A stretch of DNA of 64,000 bases from a virus, in IMG/VR virus record IMGVR_UViG_3300006147_000011. One strand, 5' to 3'. The notes under the pieces are model-generated. The model had not been told where the DNA came from, ran no database searches, and worked only from the letters and a program-made list of their open reading frames with translations. Positions 27,596 to 45,032 of the stretch are shown here, piece after piece; position 1 is the stretch's first letter; every line of letters starts with the position of its first letter. The position numbers and the translations under genes were made by a program.

Positions 27596-28207
27596 ATGAC
27601 AAACAATTACTCTAACATCACGTTGCTGGTAGATATGGATGATACCATTGAAAATCTAATACCGGCGTGGGTTGAGTGGCTCAATAATAAGCACAGCACA
27701 AACGTCAAACCAGATGACGTTACGGACTGGAATATGCAAAAATTCTATCCGAAGTTGAGTATTGACGAGGTATATGCTCCGCTTTATATCGATGAGTTTT
27801 GGACGACAATTGAACCCAAGCAGGACGCTATCTACTACCTATCCAAAATTAACGAAATGGGGTTTAACCTATATATTTGCACGAACTCAAATTATAAAAC
27901 TATTCGATGCAAATTGGAACACATTATTGATCAATATTTCCCTTTTATTTCTTGGAATCAAGTAATCAACATTGCCCACAAACAATTGATAAATGCAGAT
28001 ATTTTGGTTGACGATGGCATTCATAATTTGATTGGCGGGTCGTACAGAAAAATATTGATGACCGCATACCACAATAGAGATTACGACGCACAAAGCAACG
28101 GTATGGTTAGAGTACATAATTGGGAAGATGCGTTCGATAAGATTATCGAATACTCTGACCAACTATTAAAAAGTAAACACGGAGAACAACTAAATGCAGA
28201 TTATTAA
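27596..28207 (+). CDS. HAD-superfamily 5'(3')-deoxyribonucleotidase (NT5C-like)
   Basis: LLVDMDDTIENL (DxDxT motif I) and overall NT5C pattern. Confidence 0.55.
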   Translation: MTNNYSNITLLVDMDDTIENLIPAWVEWLNNKHSTNVKPDDVTDWNMQKFYPKLSIDEVYAPLYIDEFWTTIEPKQDAIYYLSKINEMGFNLYICTNSNYKTIRCKLEHIIDQYFPFISWNQVINIAHKQLINADILVDDGIHNLIGGSYRKILMTAYHNRDYDAQSNGMVRVHNWEDAFDKIIEYSDQLLKSKHGEQLNADY

Positions 28208-30329
28208 AAAAGACGGAACATTATCGGAATATAATGACGAAAAAATTGTGAGCGCGATAAGCAAATCTGCCGAGCGCGTAATGGTTAATTTCACCGACGA
28301 AGAAGTTAAAAAAGTTTGTGATAAGGTAAAATCAAGGCTGCCACAACAAAACGAGATTAGCATACTTGAAATGCACCGACTGGTTGAAACCGCACTCGAT
28401 GAGGTAAACCCAAAGGTTGCAAAAAGTTATCGTGACTACCGCAATTACAAGCAAGATTTCGTTCACATTCTCGATAAGGTATTTAAGAAATCTCAGACAA
28501 TTCGATACATAGGTGACAGAGATAACGCGAATACAGACAGCGCACTCGTCCCCACTCAAAGAAGCCTGATCTACAATGAACTCAACGGAGAACTATACAA
28601 GAAGTTTTTCCTTAACGTAGAAGAACGTGCGGCAATGAATGAAGGGTTTATTTATATCCACGACAGATCGGCACGTTTAGACACGATGAACTGTTGCCTG
28701 TTTAATATAGCCAAAGTTCTTGCCGGCGGCTTTGAAATGGGCAACGTGTGGTACACCGAACCAAAGACGCTTGACGTTGCGTTTGACGTTATCAGCGACA
28801 TCACTATCAGCGCGGCGGCTTGCCAATATGGCGGTTTCACAATCCCAAGGGTTGACACTATCTTGGCACCATATGCACAAAAAAGCTATGAAAAATACAA
28901 ACGCGAGTTTTATGCTATCGCATCGGCATTGAACAATTCGGGTAAGACAGTAGACGAGCAAGCCGACGTATATGCCGAACGTAAAGTACGCCGCGATTTT
29001 GAACAAGGCTTCCAATCTTGGGAGTATCGTTTCAACACCGTCGGCAGTAGTCGCGGCGACTACCCTTTCATTGCCACATCCTTTGGAATTGGAACAAGCC
29101 GCTGGGAGCAAATGGCTACGGAAGTTATCTTAAAAACTCGAATGGGTGGTCAGGGCGCGGACGGTCATAAGAAACCCGTTCTCTTCCCCAAACTCACATT
29201 CTTGTATGATAAGAACTTACACGGCGAAGGTAAGCCTATGGAATATCTGTTTGATGCGGCGGTTGAATGCTCAAGCAAATCTATGTACCCAGACTTCCTT
29301 TCCCTTACGGGCGAAGGTTACATACCGAGTATGTACAAAAAGTACGGCAAGGTTGTATCTCTCATGGGGTGTCGTGCATCTCTCTCGCCTTGGTATGAAC
29401 GCGGCGGAATGGAACCGGCAGACGACAATGATGTTCCCGTGTTTGAAGGCAGATTCAACCTCGGCGCAATTAGTCTGCACCTCCCTATGATACTACAAAA
29501 ATCAAGACAAGAAAACAGAGATTTTTATGAGGTGCTTGACTACTATCTTCAACTCATAAGGGGACTGCATAAAAAGACTTACGATTATCTGGGCGAAAAA
29601 CTTGCCTCTACAAATCCGCTTGGATATTGTCAAGGCGGTTTCTACGGCGGGACACTTAATCCTGACGACAAAATTAAACCCCTGCTCAAACCTATGACAA
29701 TGAGCTTCGGTATCACTGCCTTGAACGAACTTCAACAACTATACAACAAAAAATCGATTGTGGAAGACGGCGAGTTTGCCTTAGAAGTAATGACCTACAT
29801 CAACAAAAGAGTCACAGAATTTAAGAAAGAAGACAACATTCTATATGCGATCTACGGAACGCCGGCAGAGAGTTTGGCTGGGTTGCAAGTTGAACAATTC
29901 AGGAAGAAATACGGAATAATTCAAAACGTTTCCGATAGGCTATATGTTTCAAACAGCTTCCATTGCGGAGTTTGGGAAGACATCACACCCATCGAAAAGC
30001 AAGATTATGAGCGCCGCTTCTGGGATTTATTTAACGGTGGCAAGATACAATACTGCCGCTACCCTGTCGCCTATAATAAAGATGCCATTAAGACGCTCAT
30101 CAGACGCGCAATGGACTTTGGCTTCTACGAGGGTGTAAACCTTTCGCTGTCCTACTGTGAAGATTGTGGTTACGAACAGTTAGATATGGATAAATGCCCG
30201 AAGTGCGGCAGCGAACTCATCACAAAGATTGACCGAATGAACGGCTATCTTGGTTACACGAGAGTACACGGACGCACGAGATACAATGACGCAAAGAACG
30301 CCGAAATCAAAGATAGGATTTCAATGTGA
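28194..30329 (+). CDS. nrdD: anaerobic ribonucleoside-triphosphate reductase NrdD (class III RNR)
   Basis: N-terminal ATP-cone (MQIIKKDGTLSEYNDEKIVSAI), C-terminal zinc ribbon CEDCGY...CPKCGS and glycyl-radical-like RMNGYLGYTRV. Confidence 0.75.
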   Translation: MQIIKKDGTLSEYNDEKIVSAISKSAERVMVNFTDEEVKKVCDKVKSRLPQQNEISILEMHRLVETALDEVNPKVAKSYRDYRNYKQDFVHILDKVFKKSQTIRYIGDRDNANTDSALVPTQRSLIYNELNGELYKKFFLNVEERAAMNEGFIYIHDRSARLDTMNCCLFNIAKVLAGGFEMGNVWYTEPKTLDVAFDVISDITISAAACQYGGFTIPRVDTILAPYAQKSYEKYKREFYAIASALNNSGKTVDEQADVYAERKVRRDFEQGFQSWEYRFNTVGSSRGDYPFIATSFGIGTSRWEQMATEVILKTRMGGQGADGHKKPVLFPKLTFLYDKNLHGEGKPMEYLFDAAVECSSKSMYPDFLSLTGEGYIPSMYKKYGKVVSLMGCRASLSPWYERGGMEPADDNDVPVFEGRFNLGAISLHLPMILQKSRQENRDFYEVLDYYLQLIRGLHKKTYDYLGEKLASTNPLGYCQGGFYGGTLNPDDKIKPLLKPMTMSFGITALNELQQLYNKKSIVEDGEFALEVMTYINKRVTEFKKEDNILYAIYGTPAESLAGLQVEQFRKKYGIIQNVSDRLYVSNSFHCGVWEDITPIEKQDYERRFWDLFNGGKIQYCRYPVAYNKDAIKTLIRRAMDFGFYEGVNLSLSYCEDCGYEQLDMDKCPKCGSELITKIDRMNGYLGYTRVHGRTRYNDAKNAEIKDRISM

Positions 30330-31611: not shown

Positions 31612-32316
31612 ATGAAGAACAACCAAAACATCCCACGCAACTTGCCCGAACTCGCCGAGATAATGAAGCTTATAACCAGCGGTTCATACTCGGTTAGCCA
31701 AAGCAAATTCATCGGAGACATTTTTGAGTGTGGTGCCATTACGATATCGAACATCGTAAATCTATTCGAGAAGAAAGAACGCAGCGAAAGATACGCTCAA
31801 ATTATGGACTCCTACTCTGAACGAGACCGCTCGCTTATGCGCACGATATTGGGAAAGATATTTGACCTCTTATCGTCTGTCGTCGAAGACAACGGAAGAT
31901 TCCACGATTATCTTGGCGAACTCTATATGTGTTGTAATCAAGGCAACGACAGAACAGGACAATTCTTCACTCCGTATGATGTATCAAAGTTTATGGCTAA
32001 GGTGTCAATAGGCAGTGATATCGTCGAAGTAGCCAAGCAAGACAAAGTAATCTCGATAAGTGACCCGTGCTGTGGAGCTGGCGGAATGCTACTCGCCGCG
32101 ATTGATGTTATAAAGAATGATTATGGTATCAATTATACGCGAAGTTGTCTGTTTGAGGGATGCGACATTGATATACGATGTGTGCATATGTGTTATCTAC
32201 AGCTCTCACTCGCCGGCGCGTCTGCCATAGTTAAACATCAAAACACTTTAACTAATGAGCAATGGAGTATCTGGCGTACACCCGCATATATGCTGCAATA
32301 TCCGCATTTCAAATAA
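31612..32316 (+). CDS. truncated N6-adenine DNA methyltransferase (HsdM-like) fragment lacking catalytic motif IV
   Basis: GQFFTPYDVSKF (FFTP) and SAM motif I ISDPCCGAGGMLLAA present; ORF stops before any NPPF/NPPY motif; own terminator follows. Confidence 0.5.
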   Translation: MKNNQNIPRNLPELAEIMKLITSGSYSVSQSKFIGDIFECGAITISNIVNLFEKKERSERYAQIMDSYSERDRSLMRTILGKIFDLLSSVVEDNGRFHDYLGELYMCCNQGNDRTGQFFTPYDVSKFMAKVSIGSDIVEVAKQDKVISISDPCCGAGGMLLAAIDVIKNDYGINYTRSCLFEGCDIDIRCVHMCYLQLSLAGASAIVKHQNTLTNEQWSIWRTPAYMLQYPHFK

Positions 32317-32324
32317 GAAAAAGA

Positions 32325-32366
32325 AGGCGACCTGTGGAAACTAATCCATAGATCGCCTATTTTTTT
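32325..32366. terminator. bidirectional intrinsic terminator (AGGCGACC ... GATCGCCT + T7)
   Basis: Hairpin 32325-32358 flanked by A-run upstream and T-run downstream; lies between convergent genes. Confidence 0.5.
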
Positions 32367-32790
32367 ATTCATTAAAATACTTATCTCCGAGCCGCGTAGC
32401 CCAACCCTCAAACCAAATACTGTCGTAATCTGGCAATTCGTGATACGTCTTTTTACCGCTCCGTACAACTATCTCTCGGTACCAATATCGAATACAAGAC
32501 GGTATGCTTACCAAGAACGGCATAAATACGCCCAGCATTATGTTCTGTAAGCCGTGCCCGCTCTCGTGGCGTCTGATACTATAAGTCGGGTTCTTGTTAG
32601 TTACGAAGAAGCACCCACACTCAAAGCCGCCCCAATTCTCTCCTACTTCAAAATATATGAAATAATGAAACCTATGAGGCTTGTGCCCCGTCACCATCAA
32701 TGCGATAGCAACAAGGCAGCCCACCAATGTCATCGGCAGCCCCCACGTAAAGGATGCCACCCAAAATCCAATAGCTTTAAGCGTTTTCAT
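32365..32790 (-). CDS. integral membrane protein (2-3 TM), unknown function
   Basis: Hydrophobic segments FWVASFTWGLPMTLVGCLVAIALMV and LGVFMPFLVSI. Confidence 0.45.
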   Translation of the reverse strand: MKTLKAIGFWVASFTWGLPMTLVGCLVAIALMVTGHKPHRFHYFIYFEVGENWGGFECGCFFVTNKNPTYSIRRHESGHGLQNIMLGVFMPFLVSIPSCIRYWYREIVVRSGKKTYHELPDYDSIWFEGWATRLGDKYFNE

Positions 32791-33181
32791 TTGTGCTCTC
32801 GCTTATGGTCTTATTCTTCAAGTCGTAGATAACAGACTCAATTGTGTTAGAAATCCACGTCTTAATATCACCGAAGTTGCTCTCAATCCATTTCTTCGAG
32901 TCATCCGTCAGCTGCGCCAATGCCATTTCACCAGCTTTCGATAGTGCTTCTTTTTGCGCTTCTGCTGTAAACATATTCTTGTCTTTCAACGATTGCACGT
33001 AAGTTTGATATGTGGTTTTGACGGCGCGTGTAATCACGTCTACCGCACTTGTGAGATACTTTGCATATTTGCTATTAGCCAGTTTGGAGTTAATTAACGC
33101 AATAAGGCGTTCTGCACCCCAGCTCACCAAAGCAGTCAAAACGATGCCGATGATTGAAAGTAAAATTGCTTGCCAATCCAT
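32777..33181 (-). CDS. holin-like protein (N-terminal TM plus hydrophilic coiled tail; LL-H-holin-like architecture)
   Basis: MDWQAILLSIIGIVLTALVSWG TM then charged region; overlaps the downstream membrane protein. Confidence 0.4.
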   Translation of the reverse strand: MDWQAILLSIIGIVLTALVSWGAERLIALINSKLANSKYAKYLTSAVDVITRAVKTTYQTYVQSLKDKNMFTAEAQKEALSKAGEMALAQLTDDSKKWIESNFGDIKTWISNTIESVIYDLKNKTISESTNENA

Positions 33182-33235
33182 ATACTACCTCCTAATTATA
33201 AAGCGAGTACCCAAGGCGGCACTCGCTGTTTCTGT

Positions 33236-34354
33236 TTACGACCAATAGAATAATCGCACATAAAGGTCGTGTATTCTTTGCCTTGCCCAATATGAGTTAA
33301 ATTTGAGCTGATGACCACGCCACGAACACCACGATGTCGTAACATCTTCAAATGTCATCTTACCCTCTTCAACCCAACGCTTGAACTTTTTAAGTTTTCT
33401 GCGCATAAGCGTAATATTTTTCTTGTGCGGCTTGCGTATTATCTTTCCCGTTTTCGTTAAAATGAAATGTGTTTTGAGAAAATTGATACCACGACTTAAT
33501 TTAATTATCTGGGTTTTCTTTGGATTTAGCTTTATACCAAGTTCGGTACAAATCTCCGTAATCTTTTGCAGACAGTATTTTAAGTGTTCTTTGTCGTGGT
33601 GTATTAAGCATCCATCGTCCATATAACGACAGTAATACTTAATACCTAAATCTTCCTTTATATAGTGATCCATTTTATTTGGGAGAGCTAACGCGCAACT
33701 CTGCGATATTTGACTACCTAACCCAAGTCCGTTCTCGCCGAAGTCGTCAACAAGTTGTTTGACGATAGCATACAACCTATCGTCCGTGATTTTCTCGCGC
33801 AAAATTTTCAACAGCGCAACGTGGTTAATGCTGTTAAAGTATTTCGAGAAATCAAAAACGAGGGCGTAACCCTCGCTGCCGTGTTGTCTATAATACTTTT
33901 CCAAATGTCTGTTCATTCGGTTAAGTGCAAAGTCTATTCCGCGAAGTTTAATGCAAGCTCCGTTATCATAGATAAAAGAACGCTTCAAAATCGGAACAAG
34001 ACTGTAATCGCATAGGCACCGTTGAACAACTCGCTCACTAATATGAACGCTTTGTATATGTCTTGCCTTGCCTCGTTCGATTATATTAAACTCATAAAAT
34101 CCTTTGCTTTTGAATGTTCCGTCACGCAACATTTTATATGTAGAATTTACGTTGAGCAGAGCATTCGTTCTGTATTTGTGGGTGCTGGATTTCCAGCCCA
34201 CCCCTTTGCAACATTGTTTGTAACTGTGATACAAGTTATCAAACGTGAAAACTTTATCGTAATCACAATAAATTTCATCAAATTTCCTTTTCTTCTCGAG
34301 ACGTCTTTGTTTGCGTCTCTGATACCTTAATTCATGTCTTTCCTTGCTATTCAT
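33236..34354 (-). CDS. diversity-generating retroelement (DGR) reverse transcriptase
   Basis: RT motifs including YCRYMDDGCLI (YxDD), 372 aa; located immediately 3' of the TR/VR pair. Confidence 0.8.
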   Translation of the reverse strand: MNSKERHELRYQRRKQRRLEKKRKFDEIYCDYDKVFTFDNLYHSYKQCCKGVGWKSSTHKYRTNALLNVNSTYKMLRDGTFKSKGFYEFNIIERGKARHIQSVHISERVVQRCLCDYSLVPILKRSFIYDNGACIKLRGIDFALNRMNRHLEKYYRQHGSEGYALVFDFSKYFNSINHVALLKILREKITDDRLYAIVKQLVDDFGENGLGLGSQISQSCALALPNKMDHYIKEDLGIKYYCRYMDDGCLIHHDKEHLKYCLQKITEICTELGIKLNPKKTQIIKLSRGINFLKTHFILTKTGKIIRKPHKKNITLMRRKLKKFKRWVEEGKMTFEDVTTSWCSWRGHQLKFNSYWARQRIHDLYVRLFYWS

Positions 34355-34570
34355 AAAAATTATATACCTTGTACAGTGAAATCATTGTGGGAAAATAACT
34401 GCATAGTGATACCTACCATTAAACGCGCTACCACAATCACGCGCAATGCAAGAAGCGTCCGGTAGACCACATCAAAATATTCATTTATCCTTGCGGAAAG
34501 GTCATAAACCCCTTTTGTACTTGCGCTGATTTCGTTCCTCTATGGGAATTACTGTGTCTGGCATTATCGT

Positions 34571-34695
34571 ACAAAATCCGAAAGCGACGCCGTTACTGTT
34601 GTTGGCATTGTTGTTATTGCTGTTACCGTTGCTGTTGACATAGCAGAAGTTGTTGCTATTATTGTAATACGGAGAGCGAAGCCACCAGTTGCACG
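34571..34695 (-). repeat. DGR template repeat (TR), about 125 bp
   Basis: 108/125 identical to VR 35590-35714; all 17 mismatches fall on + strand T (TR-strand A); Asn-codon-rich when translated. Confidence 0.85.
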
Positions 34696-34742
34696 CCACG
34701 ACAAATGTAAATCGGTTCATAACCTATATATAAAAAATCGCC

Positions 34743-35162
34743 TTAAGACTCGTTTGGAGTTTCTTTAAGACGTTCTTTATCTTTTTTCTTTACTGCGGAA
34801 ATCAGTTTGGCTTCTTTTTCGATTAAGTCCATCCAAGCACACCAAGTGTTCGACTTAACTTCTTCTCCAAACATTTCTTTCGCAACATCAAGTTGGGAAA
34901 TTAAGCATTGCAAATCGCAATTTGCCCTCGTGAGATAATCTCTACGCATCTGTATTTCCAGCTCACCGGAAGGGAAAACGCTGTTTGCTGCTTTGACATT
35001 GTTGTACACCGATTGCGATAGTCTCACAATTTCGGTAGTAATAAAAAAGGTATATCGTTTAGGAAATTTGACACAATTTCGTAAGGTGAAAATCTCTAAC
35101 TGTCTTGCAGTGTCTATGAATTGTAATTGTGATTCATTTCTGTTACTTTTAAGTACCGCCAT
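34743..35162 (-). CDS. avd: DGR accessory variability determinant (Avd)-like small helical protein
   Basis: 139-aa helical, basic ORF placed between target and TR as in canonical DGR cassettes. Confidence 0.55.
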   Translation of the reverse strand: MAVLKSNRNESQLQFIDTARQLEIFTLRNCVKFPKRYTFFITTEIVRLSQSVYNNVKAANSVFPSGELEIQMRRDYLTRANCDLQCLISQLDVAKEMFGEEVKSNTWCAWMDLIEKEAKLISAVKKKDKERLKETPNES

Positions 35163-35194
35163 CTTTATCTCCTTATTGTGTCAGTATTATTTTT

Positions 35195-35515
35195 TTATTC
35201 TTCTGTTTCTTCCCGATCTTCATTTTCGGGTTGAACATACTTAATTGCCTCAAAATATTCGTTATCTTTGATGTCTATATCTCCTATCAGAACAGACGGA
35301 CTCGCGCCGAGACCAAGATATCTATCGACGTTATCTTGAGGGTTCTTCATATACCATCCGACATTATCGCCCGAAAATTTATATATCAAGTGATAGTTGC
35401 CGCATATATGTAGTTCGTTGTTAGCAATATACCCTTGTCCGTTCGCCGCGACGAAGATTAACTTCTCTGCTTCGTTGTGCGGTTCGAGCGTAGGTTTGAA
35501 ATAGAATTGCTCCAT
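35195..35515 (-). CDS. hypothetical protein (106 aa) inside the DGR cassette
   Basis: ORF with acidic C-terminus; RBS GGAGG upstream. Confidence 0.4.
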   Translation of the reverse strand: MEQFYFKPTLEPHNEAEKLIFVAANGQGYIANNELHICGNYHLIYKFSGDNVGWYMKNPQDNVDRYLGLGASPSVLIGDIDIKDNEYFEAIKYVQPENEDREETEE

Positions 35516-35531
35516 ACTTGTCCTCCTTGTT

Positions 35532-35552
35532 AATTTTTAATTCCGCCACATT
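35532..35552. other. perfect 8-bp stem / 5-nt loop hairpin (TCCGCCAC-ATTGC-GTGGCGGA) 38 nt past the VR end
   Basis: Read directly; no T-run on the coding (-) strand, so not a canonical terminator; position matches DGR VR-flanking hairpins. Confidence 0.5.
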
Positions 35553-35583
35553 GCGTGGCGGATTTCTTTGTTTTGATATGAGA

Positions 35584-36621
35584 TTAAATACAAAAGCCGA
35601 AAGCGACGCCGTAACTGTAGTCGGCACCGCTGCCATTGCTGTAACCGTTGCTGTAGACATAGCAGAAGAGGTAGCTATTACTGTAACACGGAGAGCGAAG
35701 CCACCAGATGCACGAAGTTGTTGCGCTATCCCCTTGCGCCTTTGCATTGTTATAATTGTAATAATAGTTCTTTGATGTGCCCTTTTCTTGACCAAATCTA
35801 TTATCATACTTTTGAGCAACGGCTGTATCCGTAGTATAGAAGCAACCTGTACCATCCAAAACAGAGAATGTGCCCGTACCACTCTTTGGTGCCGGAATTT
35901 TTGCGCCCTTAAAATAGTCGTATTGAGTCCCCTCACCAGCGAACGAGTTCTGGTACTGTGTAGTGTACATATGGGTTCCCATTACTTCCTCTTGAGAAAA
36001 CAAAAATAGTTTATCGTCTGTTTCGAGCATATCGCTTGACATACAACCCTTCGATGTCTTTTTCTTTACGGTTTTAATAACTGCCCGTACTTCCTCTGGT
36101 AAATAACTAAGCAATAACGGCATCGTATTATTTCGCATCTCACAATTTAACCATCCGCCCGCATTGTAACCAGATTGCCCATCATAGTCTTTCGACGAAG
36201 CATTCATCATATAGTTGGTCGCCAATGCGTTTTTCATACCAAGAGTTATGCCCGCTTTTCCGCTTCCATCAGACAAATCATCGTGGTCAAATCCAAGTAT
36301 GACCATCGTAATTTTCTCACCCGTAGAAAAAGTGATTTGCTTCTCGTCGCCAATCTTAAACGCAGACGACGCTTTGCCGCTCTCGGAAATCGTTTTGATA
36401 GTTTCCCAATCGCAATCAGCAAACGACACCATACCCGACGAAGCAAGTAACAAATCCAGTTGACCACCCATCGTTCCAAGCTTCGCCATTATCGCTTCGT
36501 ATTCTGTCTTTGCGGCATAATGTTGTTGTATATTATTCCCTGCCGCATCGTATGTTGCGGCTAACGGAACATCCACCATAGTTCCGTCCGCGGTTTTACC
36601 TTGTAATGTATATCCCGCCAT
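35584..36621 (-). CDS. DGR target protein with C-terminal C-type-lectin-fold variable region (receptor-binding candidate)
   Basis: C-terminal CIWWLRSPCYSNSYLFCYVYSNGYSNGSGADYSYGVAFGFC parallels the TR-encoded CNWWLRSPYYNNSNNFCYVNSNGNSNNNNANNSNGVAFGFC with N->X changes. Confidence 0.75.
   Translation of the reverse strand: MAGYTLQGKTADGTMVDVPLAATYDAAGNNIQQHYAAKTEYEAIMAKLGTMGGQLDLLLASSGMVSFADCDWETIKTISESGKASSAFKIGDEKQITFSTGEKITMVILGFDHDDLSDGSGKAGITLGMKNALATNYMMNASSKDYDGQSGYNAGGWLNCEMRNNTMPLLLSYLPEEVRAVIKTVKKKTSKGCMSSDMLETDDKLFLFSQEEVMGTHMYTTQYQNSFAGEGTQYDYFKGAKIPAPKSGTGTFSVLDGTGCFYTTDTAVAQKYDNRFGQEKGTSKNYYYNYNNAKAQGDSATTSCIWWLRSPCYSNSYLFCYVYSNGYSNGSGADYSYGVAFGFCI
35590..35714 (-). repeat. DGR variable repeat (VR) at the 3' end of the target gene
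   Basis: Aligned to the TR; 17 differences, all at TR adenines; GC-rich GGCGTCGCTTTCGG at its 3' end (IMH-like). Confidence 0.85.
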
Positions 36622-36633
36622 ATTTTTACCTCC

Positions 36634-37464
36634 TTAAAGTAACTTGAAAAATAGCCCACCGATAGCTAAATTCTGACTTGGAGTTGTTTGACCGGCTGTT
36701 CCCACCTCAAATGCTTGTGAACCGCCAGTTACTCTCCCTTTTTCATCTACCTCAACAGCGGAGTAAATTCCCGCCGCCACACCTGTTTTACTTAACAATG
36801 CAACGATATTGCTATCCTTAGAGCCATCAAAAGTTGTCTCGCCCGTAATGTCTCCCGATATAGATATCTTCCTTGCCGTTGACAGTTTATCCGCCGCCTC
36901 GGCTGTTTTTATCGCTGCTGCATCAATCAATTCCTGTACTCGGGCTTCCGTAACGAATGAAGATATTCTCGCGTTTACCCAAGTCTCTGTAGCATAGCCG
37001 TCGAGATTGAGTGACTGCGTTCCAAGCATCTCCCACGCGGAGTTGACATAAATATATTCGGTGTATAAGTTGTCATCACCGTCGCCAGTTTTAAGTAAGT
37101 ATATCGTTGTTTCGCTTATATCCGCAGATGGAAGCTCCGTAACAACACTTACCGAAAATTTAGGAATTGCACTGACCTTTCCTTCAAGGTCAGTAATCTT
37201 TTCATCGATTGCGGATATCGTATAGTAATTGATAAGATCGTTTACCGCCCGCGTTATAAATTGACTGACATCAGGAATGTCTGCCGCACCCGCCTTTTCG
37301 TCAAGTGCAGATTTCATTTCCGCGAACGCGCCTCCCGCGTCTTTTGCATTTATACCGTCAACGTCAACTATGACATTGCCAGCATTTGTTTCGGGATGTA
37401 AAAGTAGAAACTCATCATCCCCAAGTTTTTGCATAACTTGATAATCTTTTTGTGTTACTGCCAT
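36634..37464 (-). CDS. tail fibre protein with phage tail-fibre repeat
   Basis: ISISGDITGETTFDGSKDSNIVALL resembles the side-tail-fibre repeat; adjacent to other fibre genes. Confidence 0.5.
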   Translation of the reverse strand: MAVTQKDYQVMQKLGDDEFLLLHPETNAGNVIVDVDGINAKDAGGAFAEMKSALDEKAGAADIPDVSQFITRAVNDLINYYTISAIDEKITDLEGKVSAIPKFSVSVVTELPSADISETTIYLLKTGDGDDNLYTEYIYVNSAWEMLGTQSLNLDGYATETWVNARISSFVTEARVQELIDAAAIKTAEAADKLSTARKISISGDITGETTFDGSKDSNIVALLSKTGVAAGIYSAVEVDEKGRVTGGSQAFEVGTAGQTTPSQNLAIGGLFFKLL

Positions 37465-37466
37465 AG

Positions 37467-37856
37467 TTAGTTACCCCTTTTCTTTTCTACAAACCGATAG
37501 GAACCGACATCCATATTCTCATCAAGTTCCTCGGTTGTTTTTATTAAAGACAAAGTTTTCGCAACTGTATTAGCTGGAACCTTTGCCGTTGTTTCATCGT
37601 CCCCAACGAGTACGAAATATTTCCCTTCGTCATTTCCTTCTCCGAGATTATGTTCCTCATATTCATCAGCCACCGAAGACAGAATGCTCAAATCCTTTGA
37701 AGTAAGATCGCCGCTCACCTCAACACCGTTTAATGTGGGTAAATTGATTAACCCTCTATAGTCGCTTGGCAAAAGCGAGAGGACTTTCTTAACTTGTTGT
37801 GGTTTCTTTGATTCGCCGCGAACTATCTTCGCGGTTATTTTTTTACTCACTATCAT
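37467..37856 (-). CDS. hypothetical tail-associated protein
   Basis: ORF; start taken at MIVSKK (track start 38039 overlaps the upstream gene by about 200 nt). Confidence 0.35.
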   Translation of the reverse strand: MIVSKKITAKIVRGESKKPQQVKKVLSLLPSDYRGLINLPTLNGVEVSGDLTSKDLSILSSVADEYEEHNLGEGNDEGKYFVLVGDDETTAKVPANTVAKTLSLIKTTEELDENMDVGSYRFVEKKRGN

Positions 37857-38403
37857 TTTCGTCCCCTCCATCGGTTGGCGGTGTTTCCACCTCTGAACCA
37901 CCCTCGGGCGGAGTTGGCGGATTATCATTGCCATCGCCACCTGTCGGATTGTCAGGTTCTGTTTCGTCGGGCGGAGTTTCGGGCTCTGTCGGCTCAGTGT
38001 TGTCACCTTCGCCAGTGTTATCATCGCCATCGGTTTCACTGTCTTCTATGTAAGCATCTTCAGACAATGTATTCCTCTTTTTCAGAACTATGAAATCTTC
38101 GTTGTGTAATAATGTAATCTTACTTCCATCGACAAGCTCCAAAGTCACATCGTATGTATAGAACCCAGGCTTAACTTCATCGGATATTTTTGAAGGGAAA
38201 CGCAAACAAAACGCTTCTTGCTCTTCTGAGTAAGGCAACTCGCATAAAATCTTTGCGCCAATGCAAGAGAAATAAACTTGTGCAATATACTCGACTTCGA
38301 GGTCTTCGACGGCGAAATATATTTCAAGGACGTCACCTTTAATAAACTTAATTTCGTTTTCTGTTCCTTCACAACATCCCATGTTAGTCCTCCAATGCGA
38401 CAA
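37843..38403 (-). CDS. hypothetical protein with acidic Pro/Thr/Gly-rich C-terminal tail
   Basis: C-terminus ...TEPTEPETPPDETEPDNPTGGDGNDNPPTPPEGG. Confidence 0.45.
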   Translation of the reverse strand: MSHWRTNMGCCEGTENEIKFIKGDVLEIYFAVEDLEVEYIAQVYFSCIGAKILCELPYSEEQEAFCLRFPSKISDEVKPGFYTYDVTLELVDGSKITLLHNEDFIVLKKRNTLSEDAYIEDSETDGDDNTGEGDNTEPTEPETPPDETEPDNPTGGDGNDNPPTPPEGGSEVETPPTDGGDENDSE

Positions 38404-39721
38404 AGTTCAACGCTATAAATGGCGTGGTAACTTCACCGTCAATTTTATTTGTAGGGCACGGAAGCGCATCTAATAAATCTCTTACATCTCGTGCGGCACT
38501 ATTAGCATCATTTGTTGCGCTCTCGCAATCCTCTTTTGCTGCCTGAAAATCTTCTTCTCTCTTGGTCTCAGCAGCCACCCTTGCCGTCTCTGCCGATACA
38601 CGTTGTGCTTCTGTTGTCTCGCGGTTTGTTTCGTTCGATTGTCTTGTTTGTTCTGCGGTGCTCCTATCCGTTTCAGCTTGCGCTCTGCTTGTTTCTGCGG
38701 ATACCCTTGACGCCTCGGCTAATACGCGGGCATCTTCCCCATCAGCGCGGGTTTCTTCAGCTTCTATGCGTTCAAGCTCATTTGTTTCACGCTCGTCCTC
38801 GCTCGTCTGACGTGCAGTTTCTTGCGTTTGCCTGTCTGTCTCAGCGTTTTTGCGAGATTCTTCTGCGGCAACTCTTTCATCTTCGTTGGTGGCGCGTGTA
38901 TTTTCTGCACTTTCACGCATCGTCTCTGATGCTTTACGCTTGTCTTCATTCTCGTTCCTTTTGGTTTCCGCCATGGCACGTTCATCTTCGGCGTCTTCTC
39001 TCGTACTCTCTGCGGTCGCCCTATCGGACTCCGCGGATACGCGAGCATCCTCAGCTGTTGCACGGTTTGACTCGGAGTCCTTACGCGCATTTTCATTTGT
39101 GATGCGTTCCGCCTCATTATCCTGTCTGATTTTTTCTTGCGCAACTCGAGTATCTTCTGATTGTTTTCTTATGCTTTCAGCTTCTGCTCTTTTTGATTCT
39201 GCGCCGGAGCGAGCAGTCTCCGCTTCCACCCTACTATTTTCCGCTTCCTGTATTCTGCTTTCAAGTGAGCTCACCTCTTTCAAAAGCGTTAATAGTTCAT
39301 TATAATCATCATCATTTTCGGTGATTATTTTCCCCGATTGAGATTCTGACACAATTACATAAAATGTTTGTGTTGTTAGACATACCGTAGCATCCGAATT
39401 TGTAAACATAATATCGCAAGCGACACGTCCAGTTCTTGCAGTAAATCCACCACCAAATTGAACTATAACCGATTTTTTATCGTCGCTTATCTCGCATTTT
39501 GTGGATGTAAGCACTACGCCCGATGGTGTTGAACCACTAAGTATTGCTTTATTATAAATGCTTAAATCCATATCGCCACGATCATCATACATTGTTATTT
39601 CAAAATATCTTGAATTAACATCACCTTCTTGTACGGGGATTATAATTACTGGGGCACCTATGTAATCGGCTGCCGGCAAGCGGAAACGTCTTACGGCTTT
39701 ACCCAATAAATCAAATTGCAT
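38384..39721 (-). CDS. fibre-like protein with about 20 tandem 11-residue (hendecad) E/R/A-rich repeats
   Basis: Repeats AETARSGAESK / RAEAESIRKQS / ... / SAETARVAAET read directly; globular N-terminal domain. Confidence 0.55.
   Translation of the reverse strand: MQFDLLGKAVRRFRLPAADYIGAPVIIIPVQEGDVNSRYFEITMYDDRGDMDLSIYNKAILSGSTPSGVVLTSTKCEISDDKKSVIVQFGGGFTARTGRVACDIMFTNSDATVCLTTQTFYVIVSESQSGKIITENDDDYNELLTLLKEVSSLESRIQEAENSRVEAETARSGAESKRAEAESIRKQSEDTRVAQEKIRQDNEAERITNENARKDSESNRATAEDARVSAESDRATAESTREDAEDERAMAETKRNENEDKRKASETMRESAENTRATNEDERVAAEESRKNAETDRQTQETARQTSEDERETNELERIEAEETRADGEDARVLAEASRVSAETSRAQAETDRSTAEQTRQSNETNRETTEAQRVSAETARVAAETKREEDFQAAKEDCESATNDANSAARDVRDLLDALPCPTNKIDGEVTTPFIALNFVALED
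38554..39229 (-). repeat. degenerate 33-bp tandem repeat array encoding the hendecad repeats
   Basis: Periodic 11-codon units; causes the spurious + strand ORFs in the ORF track. Confidence 0.6.
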
Positions 39722-40216: not shown

Positions 40217-40744
40217 TTGGAGGTTATTATGAAAAAATTTAGTTCCATGTTATTAAGTCTTATTTTATTTTTTACTTGTCTCGGTATCGCTGGCTGTTCA
40301 GACGATGAATACGATAACTACACCGTAGACCTTTCTAAAATGGAAGTTGGAGATGCTATCCCCGTCTACCCCAACTGTGAGTTCGACTATATACTGACAC
40401 CAAACAGTGAAATCCATCCGGAAGTAGACAAAGAATATACATTCCATATTTCATCCATCACGGCTAAATTAGTCAAGAAAAATATAATTAGTACTAACGA
40501 TGTTGTTAGTGAACAGTTTTATCCTTTTGAAATACGAATAGACACAGCTGGATATACATCCTTAGAGTTGGCGGGATATACGTTCTCCATAAAAGTATGT
40601 TGCCAAACATCGTTTATTGATATAGCAAGCATAGATTGTGTAATCTCGCCAACTGGAGAATTTGAAGGCTTTGTTGTTTTTGGAATATATGACGCAAAGC
40701 CCTCGCCGCTTTATTTTTCTCTTATCTCTAAATATTTTTGGTAG
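40217..40744 (+). CDS. lipoprotein (signal peptide with lipobox IAGC), oppositely oriented moron within the tail-fibre region
   Basis: MKKFSSMLLSLILFFTCLGIAGCSDDE lipoprotein signal; RBS GGAGG; TTGACT -35-like upstream. Confidence 0.6.
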   Translation: MEVIMKKFSSMLLSLILFFTCLGIAGCSDDEYDNYTVDLSKMEVGDAIPVYPNCEFDYILTPNSEIHPEVDKEYTFHISSITAKLVKKNIISTNDVVSEQFYPFEIRIDTAGYTSLELAGYTFSIKVCCQTSFIDIASIDCVISPTGEFEGFVVFGIYDAKPSPLYFSLISKYFW

Positions 40745-43700
40745 TATTCCGCAATGAAGAGATTTCTTTTTCAAGGCTGTTTACTTTAGATTTCAACTGT
40801 TGTATTTGTGCCGTATTGAGCGCAATAAATTCCTCATATCTCAACATATAATATAGCTCGCCCTCGGATGGCACACACAAACCAGCAAAATCTTTAGTAT
40901 CTATATCAGCTTTATTTAGGCTGGCTTCTACATCTTGCGCAATAAAGCCTATGTGCTTTCTATGAGAAGTCCCATTGTTTAGGATGTAACTTACTGGAGT
41001 AAGATTGTCGAAGAACGCATTGTACCTATCGGACAGTTTTTCTATTGAATTTTTTAATCTAATGTCGCTACCTACTTGTGTGCCACTGTACAAGTAAAGG
41101 TTGCCCCACGCATTACCGTTTGCGCCCAATGAGTATTTTCTATCTTCTTGTGGGCTAAAATTGCCAAGAGAGTATAGAGTATTATTTGTGGAACTAAAAG
41201 AAGTAACTGTGGAGCTCGCTTGATTAGTGCGGCTTCCATATGAAGAAAAATATACGCCCGTTTCAAAACGACTATCATTGGGATTGTAACGAGTTTTAAC
41301 CTCATCTAACGAATCTAAGTTAGCGCTACCGCTTATACTTGTTGTAAACGCCGGAAAGCTTAAAGTTATTGCCTTGACGCGATATTCGGTTTTGACAATG
41401 TTATATAAATATCGAACGTACACCGTTTTTGAATATGGATATGGTAATGCCGCGGATAATGATGCAGTATAATTAAAATCGTAACTATAAGCCCACCCGC
41501 CAGACGGTGATGGAATACTATGGTTAACGACCAATGCGTTCCCCATATCGCCAGCACCCGATAAATTCGGACCATTAAAAGTTAAGGTAATCGTTTGAGT
41601 AACGGCGGTCTTATCTTTACTAAACTTTATTCCGGCTCCCGTTAAGTTTTGAATAACGAAGTCCGATGTGTTTACTGTTGTAATATACGAAGTGTTTACG
41701 CCCCCTGCCTGAGATGTGTAAATCGAAACCTCATCATTTAGATTAAAACTTGACTGTATAGGAAACCGGATTTCTTTGCTGTTTAATTTAATGTATTCGC
41801 TTTCCAATCCATCGTTAGTTATTTCAAAAGCGCCTATTGAACCGCTTGTTGCATTGACATTTCCAGTAAAAGAACCGCTTGAAGCATTTATCGTTCCCGA
41901 GAACGTCCCCGAACCATTTATTGTAATTCCATCTTTATCGCAATTAAAAACTATGGAATTACCATTTCTAAGAGTAAACCCAGTAGGCGCTAAAACATAG
42001 CTAAACTCATCTGATGTGTCGCCCTCTTTCTTTTTTGCGTATGCGGTGATTTCGTTTGCGGTTTGCTGTATAGCTGTTTCGGCATTGCCAACCCTCTTTC
42101 CAAGCGCGTCAAGGTCTGACTGAGAGGCTTTTAATGTAATGGCTTGAGCATTTGCTTCTATAGAAGTTTCAGCCGCGCCAACCCTCTTTCCAAGCGCGTC
42201 AAGGTCTGACTGAGAGGCATAGTTCTTGATGGTTATATTGCCATTATTAAGTGCTTCAAGCACCACATCGCCAGATGCGTTCTTGATGACTATTCCATTT
42301 CCGGTTAAAGTTACGCTACCGTCGTTATTTGATGCGATAACGTTATCACCAAGAATAATATTGCCAATTATTGTTTCCGCTATTAGCCCATAAGACGCCG
42401 TACCATCAGGTAGAACAATTTCCCCAAGCGCTGTCTTCGCGGTTTCCCAATTGTCATCGGTAAAGATTATAACGTTATTCATTATGCGCAATTGCTTTGG
42501 CGACAATGTTCCATTAGACTCATCAAAATCAGTATCATACTTTCTACCAAGGATACCTGTATCGTCAATTATAAATGCTTGCGATGCCATATTCGCCTGC
42601 GCGGCTCGTAACGTTCTGTCTAACGGTGCCTCAATCATGTTCGTAATACTTTCTTTGTTGCGCGTATAATCAGTCAAGTTCGACCAGTTCGCGGCTACAG
42701 TCCTTGAAGTTGAAGACGACTCCTTAATAAGGTCTGCAAACGTCATTGCTGTATCGCCAGGCTTCGATGCGTTTGAGAATGTCATCGTGAAGCTATCCGC
42801 TACATCCAAGTCATACTCAATCGACATTAACGCTGGGCGATAGTACACGCCATCCGATTTTTCGATTGTTATTGTTTTTCCAAGGACGAGCTCCTGCGTA
42901 AATTGCCTGAACTCGTACATCTTTATAAAGTTAATTGCATCAACGCTCATCTCGAATTTCGGTTGAGCGCTTTTACTTAAATCGATTTCTCCCGCCGCCA
43001 TTAACCCTTTAGCGAGATCAATACGTTCTGACATTGTTGTCGAATCATGCGTAGCGATATTATCGTTTGTATATTCGCCTTCTATCCAATAGTTTGAAAG
43101 TTCGTCGTATAACCCATCTCCCTTTCTTTTGATAAACTTTTGGATGTTGCAGATTTCGCTTATGCGATTCATTTCCTGTGTGATACTATTTATTTGTGTG
43201 TTAATCGCATTAAGAGTTGCAGCAAGAGTAGTCTTTATATAATTTTCCCATATATCACACCAACCGCCAACACCGGCGGTTTCTTTATATGTTGTGAATC
43301 TATCAAACCCAGAAACATAGTAGCGGTACAAGGAAACAATACCGTCGGCACTTGCCAAAACCCTATAACGTACTCCGTTGTAAACAAAATACGAATTTGA
43401 TGTAAATCTCACCGACAAAGTACCACAAGATATAGTGAATACATCAGTGGTGCTTGATTTTGATACGACAAATTCTGTACCGTCTATGCTGATATAGCCA
43501 GTTTTTGCACCCAAACCATCACCAGATTTGTGCGTGAAATACATTGGGTCGCCATTATTATCTTTTGCGACCTCAACAATACTATCAATATTTAGCTTGC
43601 AATAGCTACGGCTATCTCCGTCCATAAAATACATCGGTATAGGGACGCCATCGAAACCACTTTCTTCTTCATAGTAGTTTTGTATCAAGCTGTTAGCAGT

Positions 43701-45032
43701 TCCACGAGTGCCATCGGCTAAAAATGAAAACGTATAAATGCCATCGTCGCTCTTTGTCATCTTTGGCATTTCTGTGTAGCCAATTATAACCGAGTTTTCG
43801 GTAAATTCAGAGTTGTAAAATGTTGTTCCTTGTTTTAGGCTTTTTGAACCAATAGCAACAACTTCGCCGGTGATAATACCCGCACCCTCAATATCTTCAT
43901 CTTCATTATTGATATATTGATCGCGTGCCGCCTGCATATCGGTTAACTTAAGGTTTGACGTTCGTATTTCTTCGTCAGCCTTTGATTGTTCGACATACAA
44001 AGCCTGTAATCTTGTGACGAGATTGCTATAGCTATCTTTCCATTTACCCCACTCTGCTTTCCATTCGTCGAGTGCGTTAATTAGCTCTTCTGACATCCAA
44101 GGAAATTTTATTTTACCATCATCGCTTTCTCTTTTTTTATAATACTCAAAATCAACGATATAATTTGTCCCCATTGGATTAACGGTTCTTATATCAAGGC
44201 TGCCTCCGTTACAGGACATTACAGTTACAATATCCTCTGAGTTCTCTTTAATCGTTAAATTATTTATAATATTGTCAAAAGATAGATATATATCTGTAGG
44301 TAGCGTAATCGCGTCAAGTGTTTTAATTTTGATTGTGTGATAAAGAAAATCAAACTCAAATATAACCTCAAACGCCGCTTCCACGTTATTTATGATAAAA
44401 TCGTATCCGTTTAGGTTTTCATTCGCTTCAAAGCTACGGCATACGTTTTCATAACCATCTGCGGACTCATACATTTTTCCATAGCTTTTAGCCTTGAATT
44501 TAAGAATGGGGTCAACATAGGTTATAGTCCACTCTATTTTATCTTCCGTTGCTTCAATATCGGCTGTGTTCAAGGCAATTTTTATTCCCGCCTGCTGATA
44601 AAGCTGTCCAACTACGGACGGCATTGCCGCCAGATTACCACTATCATATTTTTCGTCAAAAGGGTCATTGGGGTTATAGAACATATAAACTCTTTCTTCT
44701 GTAATGAACCCTCTATTCTTTAACGCATATTGATGTGACTGTGCTGTAACCTCTTTCTCACACTGCTCGCCATTTGTAGTTTCGTGCACGCTTTCAATTT
44801 GAAACCAGCCAATTTTTTCGATAAAGAGTAAGCGCTTAGACTCGACCAAAGCATAATTATCCTCGGTACCAGCAATTTTAGGAACGGTAAAAGTCAACTG
44901 TGATAAATCGTTAAACCGTAATATCAAGTGCCTATTTTCCGCATTCAAAGCACAAATAGGTCGCTTGTCTGGATTACACAAGTACATATTCGGGCTCTCA
45001 ATTTTCTTGTAGTAATCAAAACTACTTATCAT
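40728..45032 (-). CDS. large tail fibre / tail-associated (Tal-like) protein with C-terminal peptidase-S74 intramolecular chaperone domain
   Basis: 1434 aa after the Dit-like gene; C-terminus HIGFIAQDVEASL...LYYMLRYEEFIALNTAQIQQLK matches the S74 autoproteolytic chaperone. Confidence 0.6.
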   Translation of the reverse strand: MISSFDYYKKIESPNMYLCNPDKRPICALNAENRHLILRFNDLSQLTFTVPKIAGTEDNYALVESKRLLFIEKIGWFQIESVHETTNGEQCEKEVTAQSHQYALKNRGFITEERVYMFYNPNDPFDEKYDSGNLAAMPSVVGQLYQQAGIKIALNTADIEATEDKIEWTITYVDPILKFKAKSYGKMYESADGYENVCRSFEANENLNGYDFIINNVEAAFEVIFEFDFLYHTIKIKTLDAITLPTDIYLSFDNIINNLTIKENSEDIVTVMSCNGGSLDIRTVNPMGTNYIVDFEYYKKRESDDGKIKFPWMSEELINALDEWKAEWGKWKDSYSNLVTRLQALYVEQSKADEEIRTSNLKLTDMQAARDQYINNEDEDIEGAGIITGEVVAIGSKSLKQGTTFYNSEFTENSVIIGYTEMPKMTKSDDGIYTFSFLADGTRGTANSLIQNYYEEESGFDGVPIPMYFMDGDSRSYCKLNIDSIVEVAKDNNGDPMYFTHKSGDGLGAKTGYISIDGTEFVVSKSSTTDVFTISCGTLSVRFTSNSYFVYNGVRYRVLASADGIVSLYRYYVSGFDRFTTYKETAGVGGWCDIWENYIKTTLAATLNAINTQINSITQEMNRISEICNIQKFIKRKGDGLYDELSNYWIEGEYTNDNIATHDSTTMSERIDLAKGLMAAGEIDLSKSAQPKFEMSVDAINFIKMYEFRQFTQELVLGKTITIEKSDGVYYRPALMSIEYDLDVADSFTMTFSNASKPGDTAMTFADLIKESSSTSRTVAANWSNLTDYTRNKESITNMIEAPLDRTLRAAQANMASQAFIIDDTGILGRKYDTDFDESNGTLSPKQLRIMNNVIIFTDDNWETAKTALGEIVLPDGTASYGLIAETIIGNIILGDNVIASNNDGSVTLTGNGIVIKNASGDVVLEALNNGNITIKNYASQSDLDALGKRVGAAETSIEANAQAITLKASQSDLDALGKRVGNAETAIQQTANEITAYAKKKEGDTSDEFSYVLAPTGFTLRNGNSIVFNCDKDGITINGSGTFSGTINASSGSFTGNVNATSGSIGAFEITNDGLESEYIKLNSKEIRFPIQSSFNLNDEVSIYTSQAGGVNTSYITTVNTSDFVIQNLTGAGIKFSKDKTAVTQTITLTFNGPNLSGAGDMGNALVVNHSIPSPSGGWAYSYDFNYTASLSAALPYPYSKTVYVRYLYNIVKTEYRVKAITLSFPAFTTSISGSANLDSLDEVKTRYNPNDSRFETGVYFSSYGSRTNQASSTVTSFSSTNNTLYSLGNFSPQEDRKYSLGANGNAWGNLYLYSGTQVGSDIRLKNSIEKLSDRYNAFFDNLTPVSYILNNGTSHRKHIGFIAQDVEASLNKADIDTKDFAGLCVPSEGELYYMLRYEEFIALNTAQIQQLKSKVNSLEKEISSLRNTTKNI
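42087..42219. repeat. perfect 43-bp direct duplication (period 90 bp) inside the fibre gene
   Basis: gccaaccctctttccaagcgcgtcaaggtctgactgagaggc at 42087-42129 and 42177-42219; encodes the duplicated SQSDLDALGKRVG.AET segment. Confidence 0.8.

Follow-up and report, generated by a model that had tools for sequence, protein, structure and literature searches.

We analysed a 64,000-nucleotide stretch of viral DNA (hereafter the window) and found that it carries what is almost certainly a functional diversity-generating retroelement (DGR) of a temperate siphovirus-like phage, which diversifies a C-type-lectin-fold protein encoded at the end of the tail module. To our knowledge, prokaryotes and their viruses have no natural means of targeted protein hypermutation other than DGRs, and the present element is a textbook example of this well-known system, not something new in kind. 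We observed its anatomy, the adenine specificity of its mutations, the protein families of its reverse transcriptase (RT) and target, diversification across a population of related sequences, the flow of information from template repeat (TR) to variable repeat (VR), and covariation between the TR and the adjoining spacer RNA.

A complete cassette at the distal end of the tail module

The cassette runs from a tail-fibre-like gene through the target with its 3′ VR, a small gene termed ORF106, avd, the TR, a structured spacer RNA and the RT gene to a holin gene (Table 1). An initial annotation of this DNA had described a complete cassette of target, ORF106, a 139-aa ORF, TR and RT; each of these elements was tested and is present. 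That annotation also placed the target first in the tail-fibre cluster. Because the target, ORF106, avd and RT genes all lie on the minus strand, the target is instead the last gene of the tail/fibre module in the direction of transcription, ahead of the lysis genes. Order and placement are the same as in the prototype, BPP-1, where tail fibre, mtd (with the VR), avd, TR and brt are likewise followed by lysis genes.

The carrier is a temperate siphovirus-like phage, an uncultured gut prophage. Its relatives include prophages in Christensenella-like genomes, and the host is likely to be found among Christensenella-like gut bacteria, a health-associated and poorly cultured gut lineage. In contrast to BPP-1, the probable host is a Gram-positive-type gut anaerobe lineage as opposed to Bordetella. 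A megablast search of positions 33000-37500 against 50,697 GenBank phage records gave no match.

Table 1 Features of the retroelement and its neighbours (window coordinates)
Feature	Position	Strand	Remarks
Holin, downstream neighbour, start of lysis module	32777..33181	-	PHROG 13712, E 1e-28
Terminator-like hairpin just past RT stop	33202..33227	-	Consensus scan only: 10-bp stem, weak T tail
DGR reverse transcriptase, 372 aa	33236..34354	-	Pfam RVT_1, PHROG 1423, bRT match
Structured spacer RNA between TR and RT, Rfam RT-2 (RF03077)	34344..34566	-	cmscan
Spacer strand GUACAAAA, proposed priming duplex	34513..34520	-	Directly before conserved GGGG/AGGRG
TR 3′-end strand UUUUGUAC, proposed priming duplex	34569..34576	-	Pairs with 34513-34520
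Template repeat (TR)	34570..34695	-	15 AAY codons in VR frame
avd (accessory variability determinant), 139 aa, pI 8.7	34743..35162	-	PHROG 3206
ORF106, small acidic beta-rich protein between target and avd	35195..35515	-	
GC-rich hairpin (TCCGCCAC-GCAAT-GTGGCGGA), 26 nt downstream of VR	35542..35562	-	DNA fold z-score -3.3
DGR target gene, 345 aa, DUF6273 / C-type-lectin fold, VR at 3′ end	35584..36621	-	
Invariant VR 3′ end (GGCGTCGCTTTCGG-C-TTTTGTA), IMH-like	35589..35610	-	Fixed C at 35596 where TR has A
Variable repeat (VR)	35589..35714	-	Encodes target residues about 303-345
Tail-fibre-like protein, upstream neighbour, 276 aa	36634..37464	-	PHROG 7389 tail fiber protein, E 2e-16, and related families

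Differences between the repeats are confined to template adenines

A repeat search returned one direct repeat of 126 nt, its two copies 87% identical; the repeat pair given initially (125 bp, from 34571 and 35590) thus exists but is one base longer. Within the 64-kb window there was no second VR-like copy, and a second DGR target was accordingly rejected. Alignment of the copies on the minus (coding) strand, with mismatches counted by base, bore out the reported 17 differences, every one of them at a TR adenine (8 A>G, 7 A>T and 2 A>C). With 39 A in 127 nt of TR, the probability of such an outcome by chance is about 1e-10. Adenine-only differences between TR and VR were also found in five related loci; BPP-1 shares both this feature and the placement of the VR at the 3′ terminus of a gene for a C-type-lectin-fold protein.

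Sixteen of the 17 changes affect the first or second position of a target codon, and the remaining one (34577/35596, GGA>GGC) is synonymous. Read in the VR frame, the TR contains 15 AAY (Asn), 3 TAY and 4 AGY codons, from none of which a stop can be reached by mutation, and the theoretical VR diversity is ~7e21 over up to 22 codons. The VR ends at 35589, 2 nt short of the end of the last sense codon (35587), with the stop at 35584.

The synonymous difference stands apart from the others. All VRs of the lineage share the same 3′ end, and the position in question is C in 6/6 independent VRs and A in every TR. Most likely, information transfer reaches its 3′ limit at this position, and the difference does not reflect mutagenesis; the view that all 17 differences reflect mutagenic homing therefore holds as regards adenine restriction, but not for this fixed TR-A/VR-C pair, which is not a product of ongoing mutagenesis. 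In the RT-53% clade, the homology between TR and VR ends immediately past TTCGG. Beyond the VR lies a GC-rich hairpin, a candidate target-recognition hairpin or cruciform by analogy with BPP-1. Two relatives (L006 and L007) have the same architecture, an 8-bp stem with a 5-nt loop, at the same place, the stem sequence being wholly different. A terminator was rejected as the main reading of this hairpin, because its T-run is found only on the non-coding plus strand and no gene ends there.

The variable repeat is diversified across related genomes

We next examined variation among close relatives of the target, the window's protein being represented by the 96%-identical P0001 for contig look-up. 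In the target's 90% cluster of 14 members, the N-terminal part varied at just 6/304 columns, whereas 19/41 VR columns were variable. All 19 variable columns fell on the 22 A-bearing TR codons and none on the other 19 codons; these 14 near-identical proteins come from other metagenomes, and the diversity is that of separate assemblies, not of reads from one population. Population variation, chosen beforehand as the refuting test for the retroelement, is thus present and restricted to A-bearing TR codons. Five related contigs or prophages (L001, L002, L009, L011 and L012) gave the same picture, with TRs identical or nearly so, differing VRs, and hypervariability confined to A-bearing TR codons. 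L001 has one mismatch that does not lie at an adenine; a contig of chimeric or recombinant origin accounts for it, and sloppy mutagenesis was rejected as its cause. Information flows one way, from TR to VR: non-A changes of the TR recur in the same element's VR, both in L002 (T>A, G>C) and in L012 (AC>CG).

Could these differences be old inherited polymorphisms of a relic that once diversified its VR and is now inactive? Separate assemblies, as opposed to single-sample reads, are compatible with such a history, as are three AGC codons of the VR that stay constant in the 14 variants and imply that the adenines are not all equally used. However, intact copies of RT, avd, TR and RT-2 RNA are present, and in L001 and L009 they are 100% identical although the VRs of these two differ; in addition, recent point changes of the TR reappear in VRs. 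The 304 nearly invariant N-terminal residues beside 19 freely varying VR columns call for recent, repeated mutagenesis. We consider a relic highly improbable; judging from its sequence, the DGR is complete and evidently active.

Reverse transcriptase and Avd

The RT matched Pfam RVT_1 (E 7e-18) and PHROG 1423 (E 5e-87), and its best PDB match was the homologous Bordetella bRT (8ub7, E 3e-23), with the RTs of group II introns and retrons ranking lower. It stayed below the curated cut-offs of the NCBIfam group II, retron and Drt models. Its motifs, LGSQISQ at residue 212 ([LIV]GxxxSQ, motif 4) and YMDD at residue 244, agree with the YMDD reverse transcriptase with DGR signatures that had been annotated, and by these sequence features the enzyme belongs to the DGR clade.

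Avd is a small basic helical protein encoded beside the TR. The 139-aa ORF, annotated from its size as the Avd of this cassette, matched PHROG 3206 ("Avd protein of DGR") with E 2e-8 over residues 2-136, and its gene lies directly 5′ of the TR, as in BPP-1. The family match, position, size and pI support its identification as a probable Avd. It remained below Pfam and NCBIfam thresholds; sub-threshold matches among its homologues were to PF05635 (weak, 16/34) and PF22296 bAvd (2). Searches of the PDB with the single sequence or a 34-sequence profile returned no solved Avd and only chance matches, such as ribosomal S15 (E about 0.06). The profile comparison with Avd that had been suggested as a check came out negative: by hhalign, similarity to BPP-1 Avd was not detectable, and the protein here is too diverged to match it.

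The spacer RNA is a known Rfam motif that covaries with the template

The spacer between TR and RT is filled by Rfam RT-2, matched over its full length (1-222) with a score of 129.9 bits (gathering score 40), and relatives carry RT-2 at the same position. Among RT-2 loci, 39/51 have a VR-like copy of the 80 nt upstream, with A-only mismatches. The helix between the TR 3′ end and the spacer shows covariation in at least 10 lineages and occurs in no fewer than 10 distinct sequence versions, and the longest perfect helix is longer for cognate pairs (median 7 bp) than for non-cognate ones (5 bp; Mann-Whitney p 2e-9). In BPP-1, too, the TR-RT spacer is a structured RNA that pairs through its 5′ part with the TR 3′ end (bioRxiv 10.1101/2023.10.23.563531), although the spacer here is RT-2, not RT-10. 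By analogy with Sp A56 of BPP-1 in the same study, the last A of GUACAAAA is a candidate priming adenosine. A cPRT-stop-like duplex of the TR flanks was indistinguishable from shuffled sequences (RNAduplex -45.8 kcal/mol vs -41 ± 4.7). We conclude that the orphan Rfam family RT-2 very probably serves a large clade of gut-phage DGRs as their cis-priming spacer RNA, its helix with the TR 3′ end fixing the start of the cDNA.

The target is a C-type-lectin-fold protein outside the Mtd family

The initial annotation ascribed a C-type-lectin-type C-terminus to the VR-bearing target. In agreement with this, the protein matched the DUF6273 profile above its gathering score, and its predicted structure has a C-type-lectin fold with the VR on the C-terminal strands. 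Of the two relationships that had been suggested for the C-terminus, the fold is thus present in the model but similarity to Mtd is not: hhalign of the target profile against Mtd gave a probability of 1.6%, with no sequence similarity. The N-terminal domain of Mtd (PF18454) found no match in the target itself, but is present in many homologues. The target is probably Mtd-like in role, yet lies outside the Mtd family, which sets it apart from the BPP-1 protein.

Position and fold suggest that the target is most likely a receptor-binding protein, by analogy with BPP-1. Alternatively, an active DGR could serve another kind of binding protein, such as a mucus- or glycan-binding decoration of capsid or tail, or a surface or secreted protein used by the lysogen. 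Consistent with this alternative, the PHROG matches of the target include a weak one to a Hoc-like head-decoration family, the best structural match of the model is the DUF6273 domain of a bacterial cell-surface IgA peptidase, and the N-terminal 65 residues are poorly modelled, with no tail-attachment domain identified by domain search or in the model. Against it, the gene occupies the distal end of the tail module, with a tail-fibre-like gene before and a holin after, as mtd does in BPP-1; PF18454 is found in the homologues noted above; and DUF6273 proteins, already reported as DGR targets in gut phages (PMC10743442, PMC11792537), are read as receptor-binding proteins in the literature. We therefore regard a role other than receptor binding as improbable.

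DUF6273 targets occur in DGRs of human-gut Clostridia phages, namely the Faecalibacterium prophages Lelie, Roos, Pioen and FP_Taranis, phages nd4 and nd12, and Roseburia phage Shimadzu, which share with the present element the gut phage context and a VR at the DUF6273 C-terminal end with a C-lectin-like model (PMC10743442, PMC11792537). They are nevertheless distant sequence relatives only, with RTs 31-45% and targets 25-34% identical; nd4 and nd12 have two targets each, as opposed to a single one here, and ORF106 is not reported in these phages. TvpA of Treponema denticola, a bacterial lipoprotein, is of the formylglycine-generating-enzyme-type C-lectin subtype, unlike the target here, and the sequence identity is 12%.

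ORF106, an additional gene inside the cassette

The extra 106-aa ORF pointed out between target and avd was indeed seen there, in an interval where BPP-1 has no counterpart. ORF106 is conserved in the five related contigs or prophages listed above, and homologues of 33-37% identity occupy the same position in L033 and L078; within its clade (RT at least 61%) identity ranges from 33 to 100%, always between target and avd. Among 1.84 billion proteins, it has 12 close clusters and 38 representatives.

On the ordinary reading, ORF106 would assist the target or the tail fibre as a chaperone or adaptor and would not belong to the retroelement machinery. Its gene directly follows that of the putative receptor-binding protein, the usual spot for fibre assembly factors, its product is small and acidic (pI 4.5), and DGRs of a neighbouring clade (L005-7), in which avd directly follows the target, work without it. 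However, it had no match in Pfam, PHROG or NCBIfam, and a fold search was without result, leaving no sequence or fold similarity to known chaperones; moreover, all 7 occurrences among about 120 DGR loci were inside the cassette, in the gap between target and avd. We give the chaperone reading an even chance. That ORF106 is a third, clade-specific DGR protein required for cDNA homing or for handling of the variable protein, not an ordinary fibre chaperone, appears improbable.

Proposed mechanism and implications

Four elements are modelled here on BPP-1: priming in cis, the complex of Avd with the RT, the function of the hairpin, and receptor binding by the target. In this scheme, an RT-Avd complex would bind an RNA that extends from the 3′ end of avd through the TR and the RT-2 spacer. 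The TR 3′ end (UUUUGUAC) would pair with the spacer (GUACAAAA), and a spacer adenosine would prime cDNA synthesis in cis. While copying the TR, the RT would misincorporate opposite adenines, and the mutagenised cDNA would replace the VR in the 3′-terminal part of the target gene, a homing step probably guided by the GC-rich, invariant end of the VR together with the hairpin downstream of it. The outcome would be diversification of up to 22 codons (~7e21 variants, no stops) on the ligand-binding face of the C-type-lectin-fold protein.

DGRs are very common in gut phages, and one further complete cassette therefore adds little by itself. The value of this one lies in being a clean, well-supported example, with natural VR variants from many metagenomes and a probable host indicated. 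The small conserved ORF106 is a candidate accessory factor that would be cheap to test. The orphan motif RT-2 is now tied, very probably, to the priming RNA of DGRs, and the covarying TR:spacer helix may offer a sequence-defined handle for predicting the cDNA start in hundreds of gut-phage DGRs.

Template-to-variable repeat copying

A direct-repeat search of positions 32000-38000 returned one long direct repeat, a 126-nt pair at 87% identity, so the 125-bp template repeat (TR) and variable repeat (VR) first proposed were correctly placed to within one base; no further VR-like copy beyond the VR was found within the 64-kb window. Alignment and base counting on the minus strand, which codes for all the genes concerned, reproduced the 17 differences of the initial annotation (8 A>G, 7 A>T and 2 A>C), with the adenine on the TR side in 17/17 (chance P ~1e-10, given 39 A per 127 nt of TR). 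The 345-aa target ORF stops just past the VR copy, and 16 of the 17 differences fall at its codon position 1 or 2. In the target frame the TR reads C-N-W-W-L-R-S-P-Y-Y-N-N-S-N-N-F-C-Y-V-N-S-N-G-N-S-N-N-N-N-A-N-N-S-N-G-V-A-F-G-F-C, with 15 AAY, 3 TAY and 4 AGY codons, none of which can reach a stop; the computed number of proteins reachable by TR adenine mutagenesis is ~7e21.

The target's 90% cluster comprises 14 distinct sequences, drawn from JGI, ENA and Logan assemblies, in which 6 of the first 304 columns and 19 of the last 41 are variable. The latter 19 map exclusively to the 22 A-bearing TR codons, leaving the 19 remaining codons invariant; the population variation suggested earlier as a check on the VR was thus found across separate assemblies and confined to A-bearing codons. 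At the DNA level, five related contigs or prophages (L001, L002, L009, L011 and L012) have a common TR (0-2 changes) and quite different VRs. Non-adenine TR changes recur in the cognate VR of L002 (T>A, G>C) and L012 (AC>CG), and an adenine gained in the TR of L011 is accompanied by a VR substitution at that position. The combined protein and DNA variation is direct evidence of TR-to-VR copying.

The TR's three AGC (Ser) codons, at target residues 316, 324 and 328 (35605-35687, minus strand), contain a mutable adenine and are invariant among the 14 variants, unlike the AGT codon at residue 336, which varies. This suggests that the scaffold serines are under purifying selection or that misincorporation depends on context.

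Probable limit of the transferred sequence

The difference at 34577 (TR A versus VR C; GGA/GGC) is synonymous, with C in 6/6 independent VRs and A in every TR of the lineage. In the clade of relatives with 53% identical RTs, TR/VR homology stops exactly past TTCGG, the bases before the 34577 equivalent, and the priming-helix strand of the TR is not homologous to the VR. Judging from this fixed C/A pair and the end of homology, 34577 is most likely located at the 3' limit of transfer or past it, as a difference between an invariant VR-end segment and its TR counterpart (IMH/IMH* type); it is thus the one difference likely not mutagenic, and with it excluded the mutagenic differences would really number 16.

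An 8-bp GC hairpin (z-score -3.3) stands 26 nt downstream of the VR, whose invariant end reads GGCGTCGCTTTCGG. Two members of the RT-53% clade, L006 and L007, carry a hairpin at the same site (8-bp stem, 5-nt loop), in wholly different sequence. In Bordetella phage BPP-1, a hairpin/cruciform guides homing, and the hairpin here would fit such a role by analogy.

The related contig L001 (IMGVR_UViG_3300006145_000271) has a ~79-bp tandem duplication of the VR 3' end and hairpin (1019-1176), with one loop difference. Its target gene is just 78% identical to that of the window, against 99.6% for the remainder of the contig, and its VR bears the L012-type CGG variant, which its own TR does not. Either chimeric assembly or recombination, with a junction at the conserved VR end, probably accounts for L001.

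Cassette genes

The cassette layout matches that of BPP-1. Since the structural genes are all on the minus strand, the target comes last in the tail module rather than, as annotated initially, first in a tail-fibre cluster.

Features of the window
Feature	Position	Strand
tRNA-Pro	3-74	
Isochorismatase/nicotinamidase-like	518-1288	+
Nicotinamide or nicotinate phosphoribosyltransferase	2106-3599	+
Tyrosine recombinase/integrase	8921-9940	+
Tyrosine recombinase/integrase	12147-13445	+
AAA_28-NADAR fusion	15827-16828	+
Primase-DnaB-like helicase fusion	20088-21917	+
Pol III alpha-type polymerase (1071 aa)	21917-25132	+
Anaerobic ribonucleotide reductase NrdD	28194-30329	+
Holin	32777-33181	-
RT	33236-34354	-
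RT-2 RNA	34344-34566	-
TR	34570-34695	-
avd	34743-35162	-
ORF106	35195-35515	-
Hairpin	35542-35562	
VR	35589-35714	-
DGR target	35584-36621	-
Fibre-like proteins	38384-39721, 36634-37464	-
Minor tail/fibre protein	40728-45032	-
Tape measure protein	45892-50253	-
Portal	60218-61741	-
Terminase	61741-63519	-

The 372-aa RT matches Pfam RVT_1 and PHROG 1423 (E 5e-87), and among solved structures it comes closest to bRT, the DGR enzyme of the Bordetella phage (8ub7, E 3e-23), with group II intron and retron RTs far behind. Besides the YMDD noted earlier it contains LGSQISQ, [LIV]GxxxSQ being the signature of DGR RTs. Among named phages, the closest RT belongs to Roseburia phage Shimadzu (45% identity). 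We provisionally assign the basic 139-aa ORF (pI 8.7) to Avd because of its match to PHROG 3206 'Avd protein of DGR' (E 2e-8), its size and its position. The Avd-type Pfam families PF05635 and PF22296 scored below threshold only, and the ORF went undetected both in a PDB profile search and when compared by hhalign with BPP-1 Avd. Overall, the cassette is evidently a canonical DGR, complete and active. DGRs of this kind are already well known from gut phages, and the initial reading stands with minor corrections.

The extra 106-aa ORF noted between target and avd is present, acidic (pI 4.5) and 100% conserved in L001 and L009. Two relatives with 61-62% identical RTs, L033 and L078, have homologues in the same slot (33-37% identity), and it is absent from the RT-53% clade. 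With 38 representatives in 1.84 billion proteins the family is tiny, and family and fold searches gave no assignment. An ordinary guess is a fibre or target chaperone; a DGR accessory protein is conceivable too.

The 445-aa fibre-like protein (38384-39721) has a long and highly repetitive Glu/Arg/Ala/Thr-rich centre (residues ~150-400), which gives rise to several overlapping spurious ORFs in both orientations. In L005-L007, of the RT-53% clade, each DGR has two DUF6273 genes, both carrying a VR-like TR copy (e.g. L007 3463-4113 and 10149-10679), one upstream of avd and the other ~4 kb downstream of the RT.

Phage type and host

The plus-strand half encodes integrases, a primase-helicase, a Pol III alpha subunit, an anaerobic ribonucleotide reductase, dUTPase and NAD-salvage enzymes, a content that, with its integrases, points to a temperate phage; the two tyrosine-recombinase/integrase genes, together with a tRNA-Pro at the extreme start of the window, fit this. 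For replication and nucleotide supply the phage carries genes of its own, dUTPase included. Its terminase shares 44% identity with that of SPbeta-like Bacillus phages. The three NAD-related genes may form an NAD+ salvage or counter-defence module. RTs 93-95% identical, with the same TR, occur inside 260-kb and 492-kb contigs of MAGs labelled 'uncultured Christensenella sp.', and these integrated relatives suggest a Christensenella-like host lineage.

RT-2 and the TR:spacer helix

RT-2 (Rfam RF03077) is one of 19 'RT' motifs near RT genes, among which RT-10 alone was tied to a DGR, that of BPP-1, with speculation that others are DGR parts too (Weinberg et al. 2017, PMC5737381). Our literature search found no paper assigning RT-2 to DGRs. 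It occupies the same site in relatives with RT identity of at least 53%. When IMG/VR was scanned for a conserved RT-2 15-mer, 120 loci matched, and nhmmer detected RT-2 in 87 of the loci collected by then. Where its 5' end was complete, the 80 nt directly upstream recurred on the same strand, 0.7-1.1 kb upstream, in 39/51 loci, with 0-2 non-A and 6-20 A mismatches; the other 12 mostly had too little upstream DNA for a VR. The orphan family RT-2 is therefore a DGR RNA, lying directly 3' of a TR in these 39 of the 51 viral loci.

Immediately ahead of a conserved (A)AGGRG, the spacer (the 5' part of RT-2) forms a helix with the TR 3' end: in the window, UUUUGUAC (34569-34576) with GUACAAAA (34513-34520), and in other lineages UUCCAUAA/UUAUGGAA, CUCUGCAA/UUGCAGAG, UUUUAUAU/AUAUAAAA, UUCUGCAA/UUGCAGAA, UUAUUUA/UAAAUAA and more. 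The median longest perfect helix was 7 bp for cognate versus 5 bp for non-cognate TR/spacer pairs (Mann-Whitney p 2e-9), and 57% versus 11% of pairs, respectively, reached at least 7 bp. The window helix mirrors the TR118-121:Sp53-56 duplex of BPP-1, which positions the priming adenosine Sp A56 (bioRxiv 10.1101/2023.10.23.563531); by analogy, cDNA would start at or adjoining 34577-34578. The conserved ORF106 and the probable role of RT-2 in DGR priming, with a TR:spacer helix that covaries, are modestly interesting by-products of this analysis.
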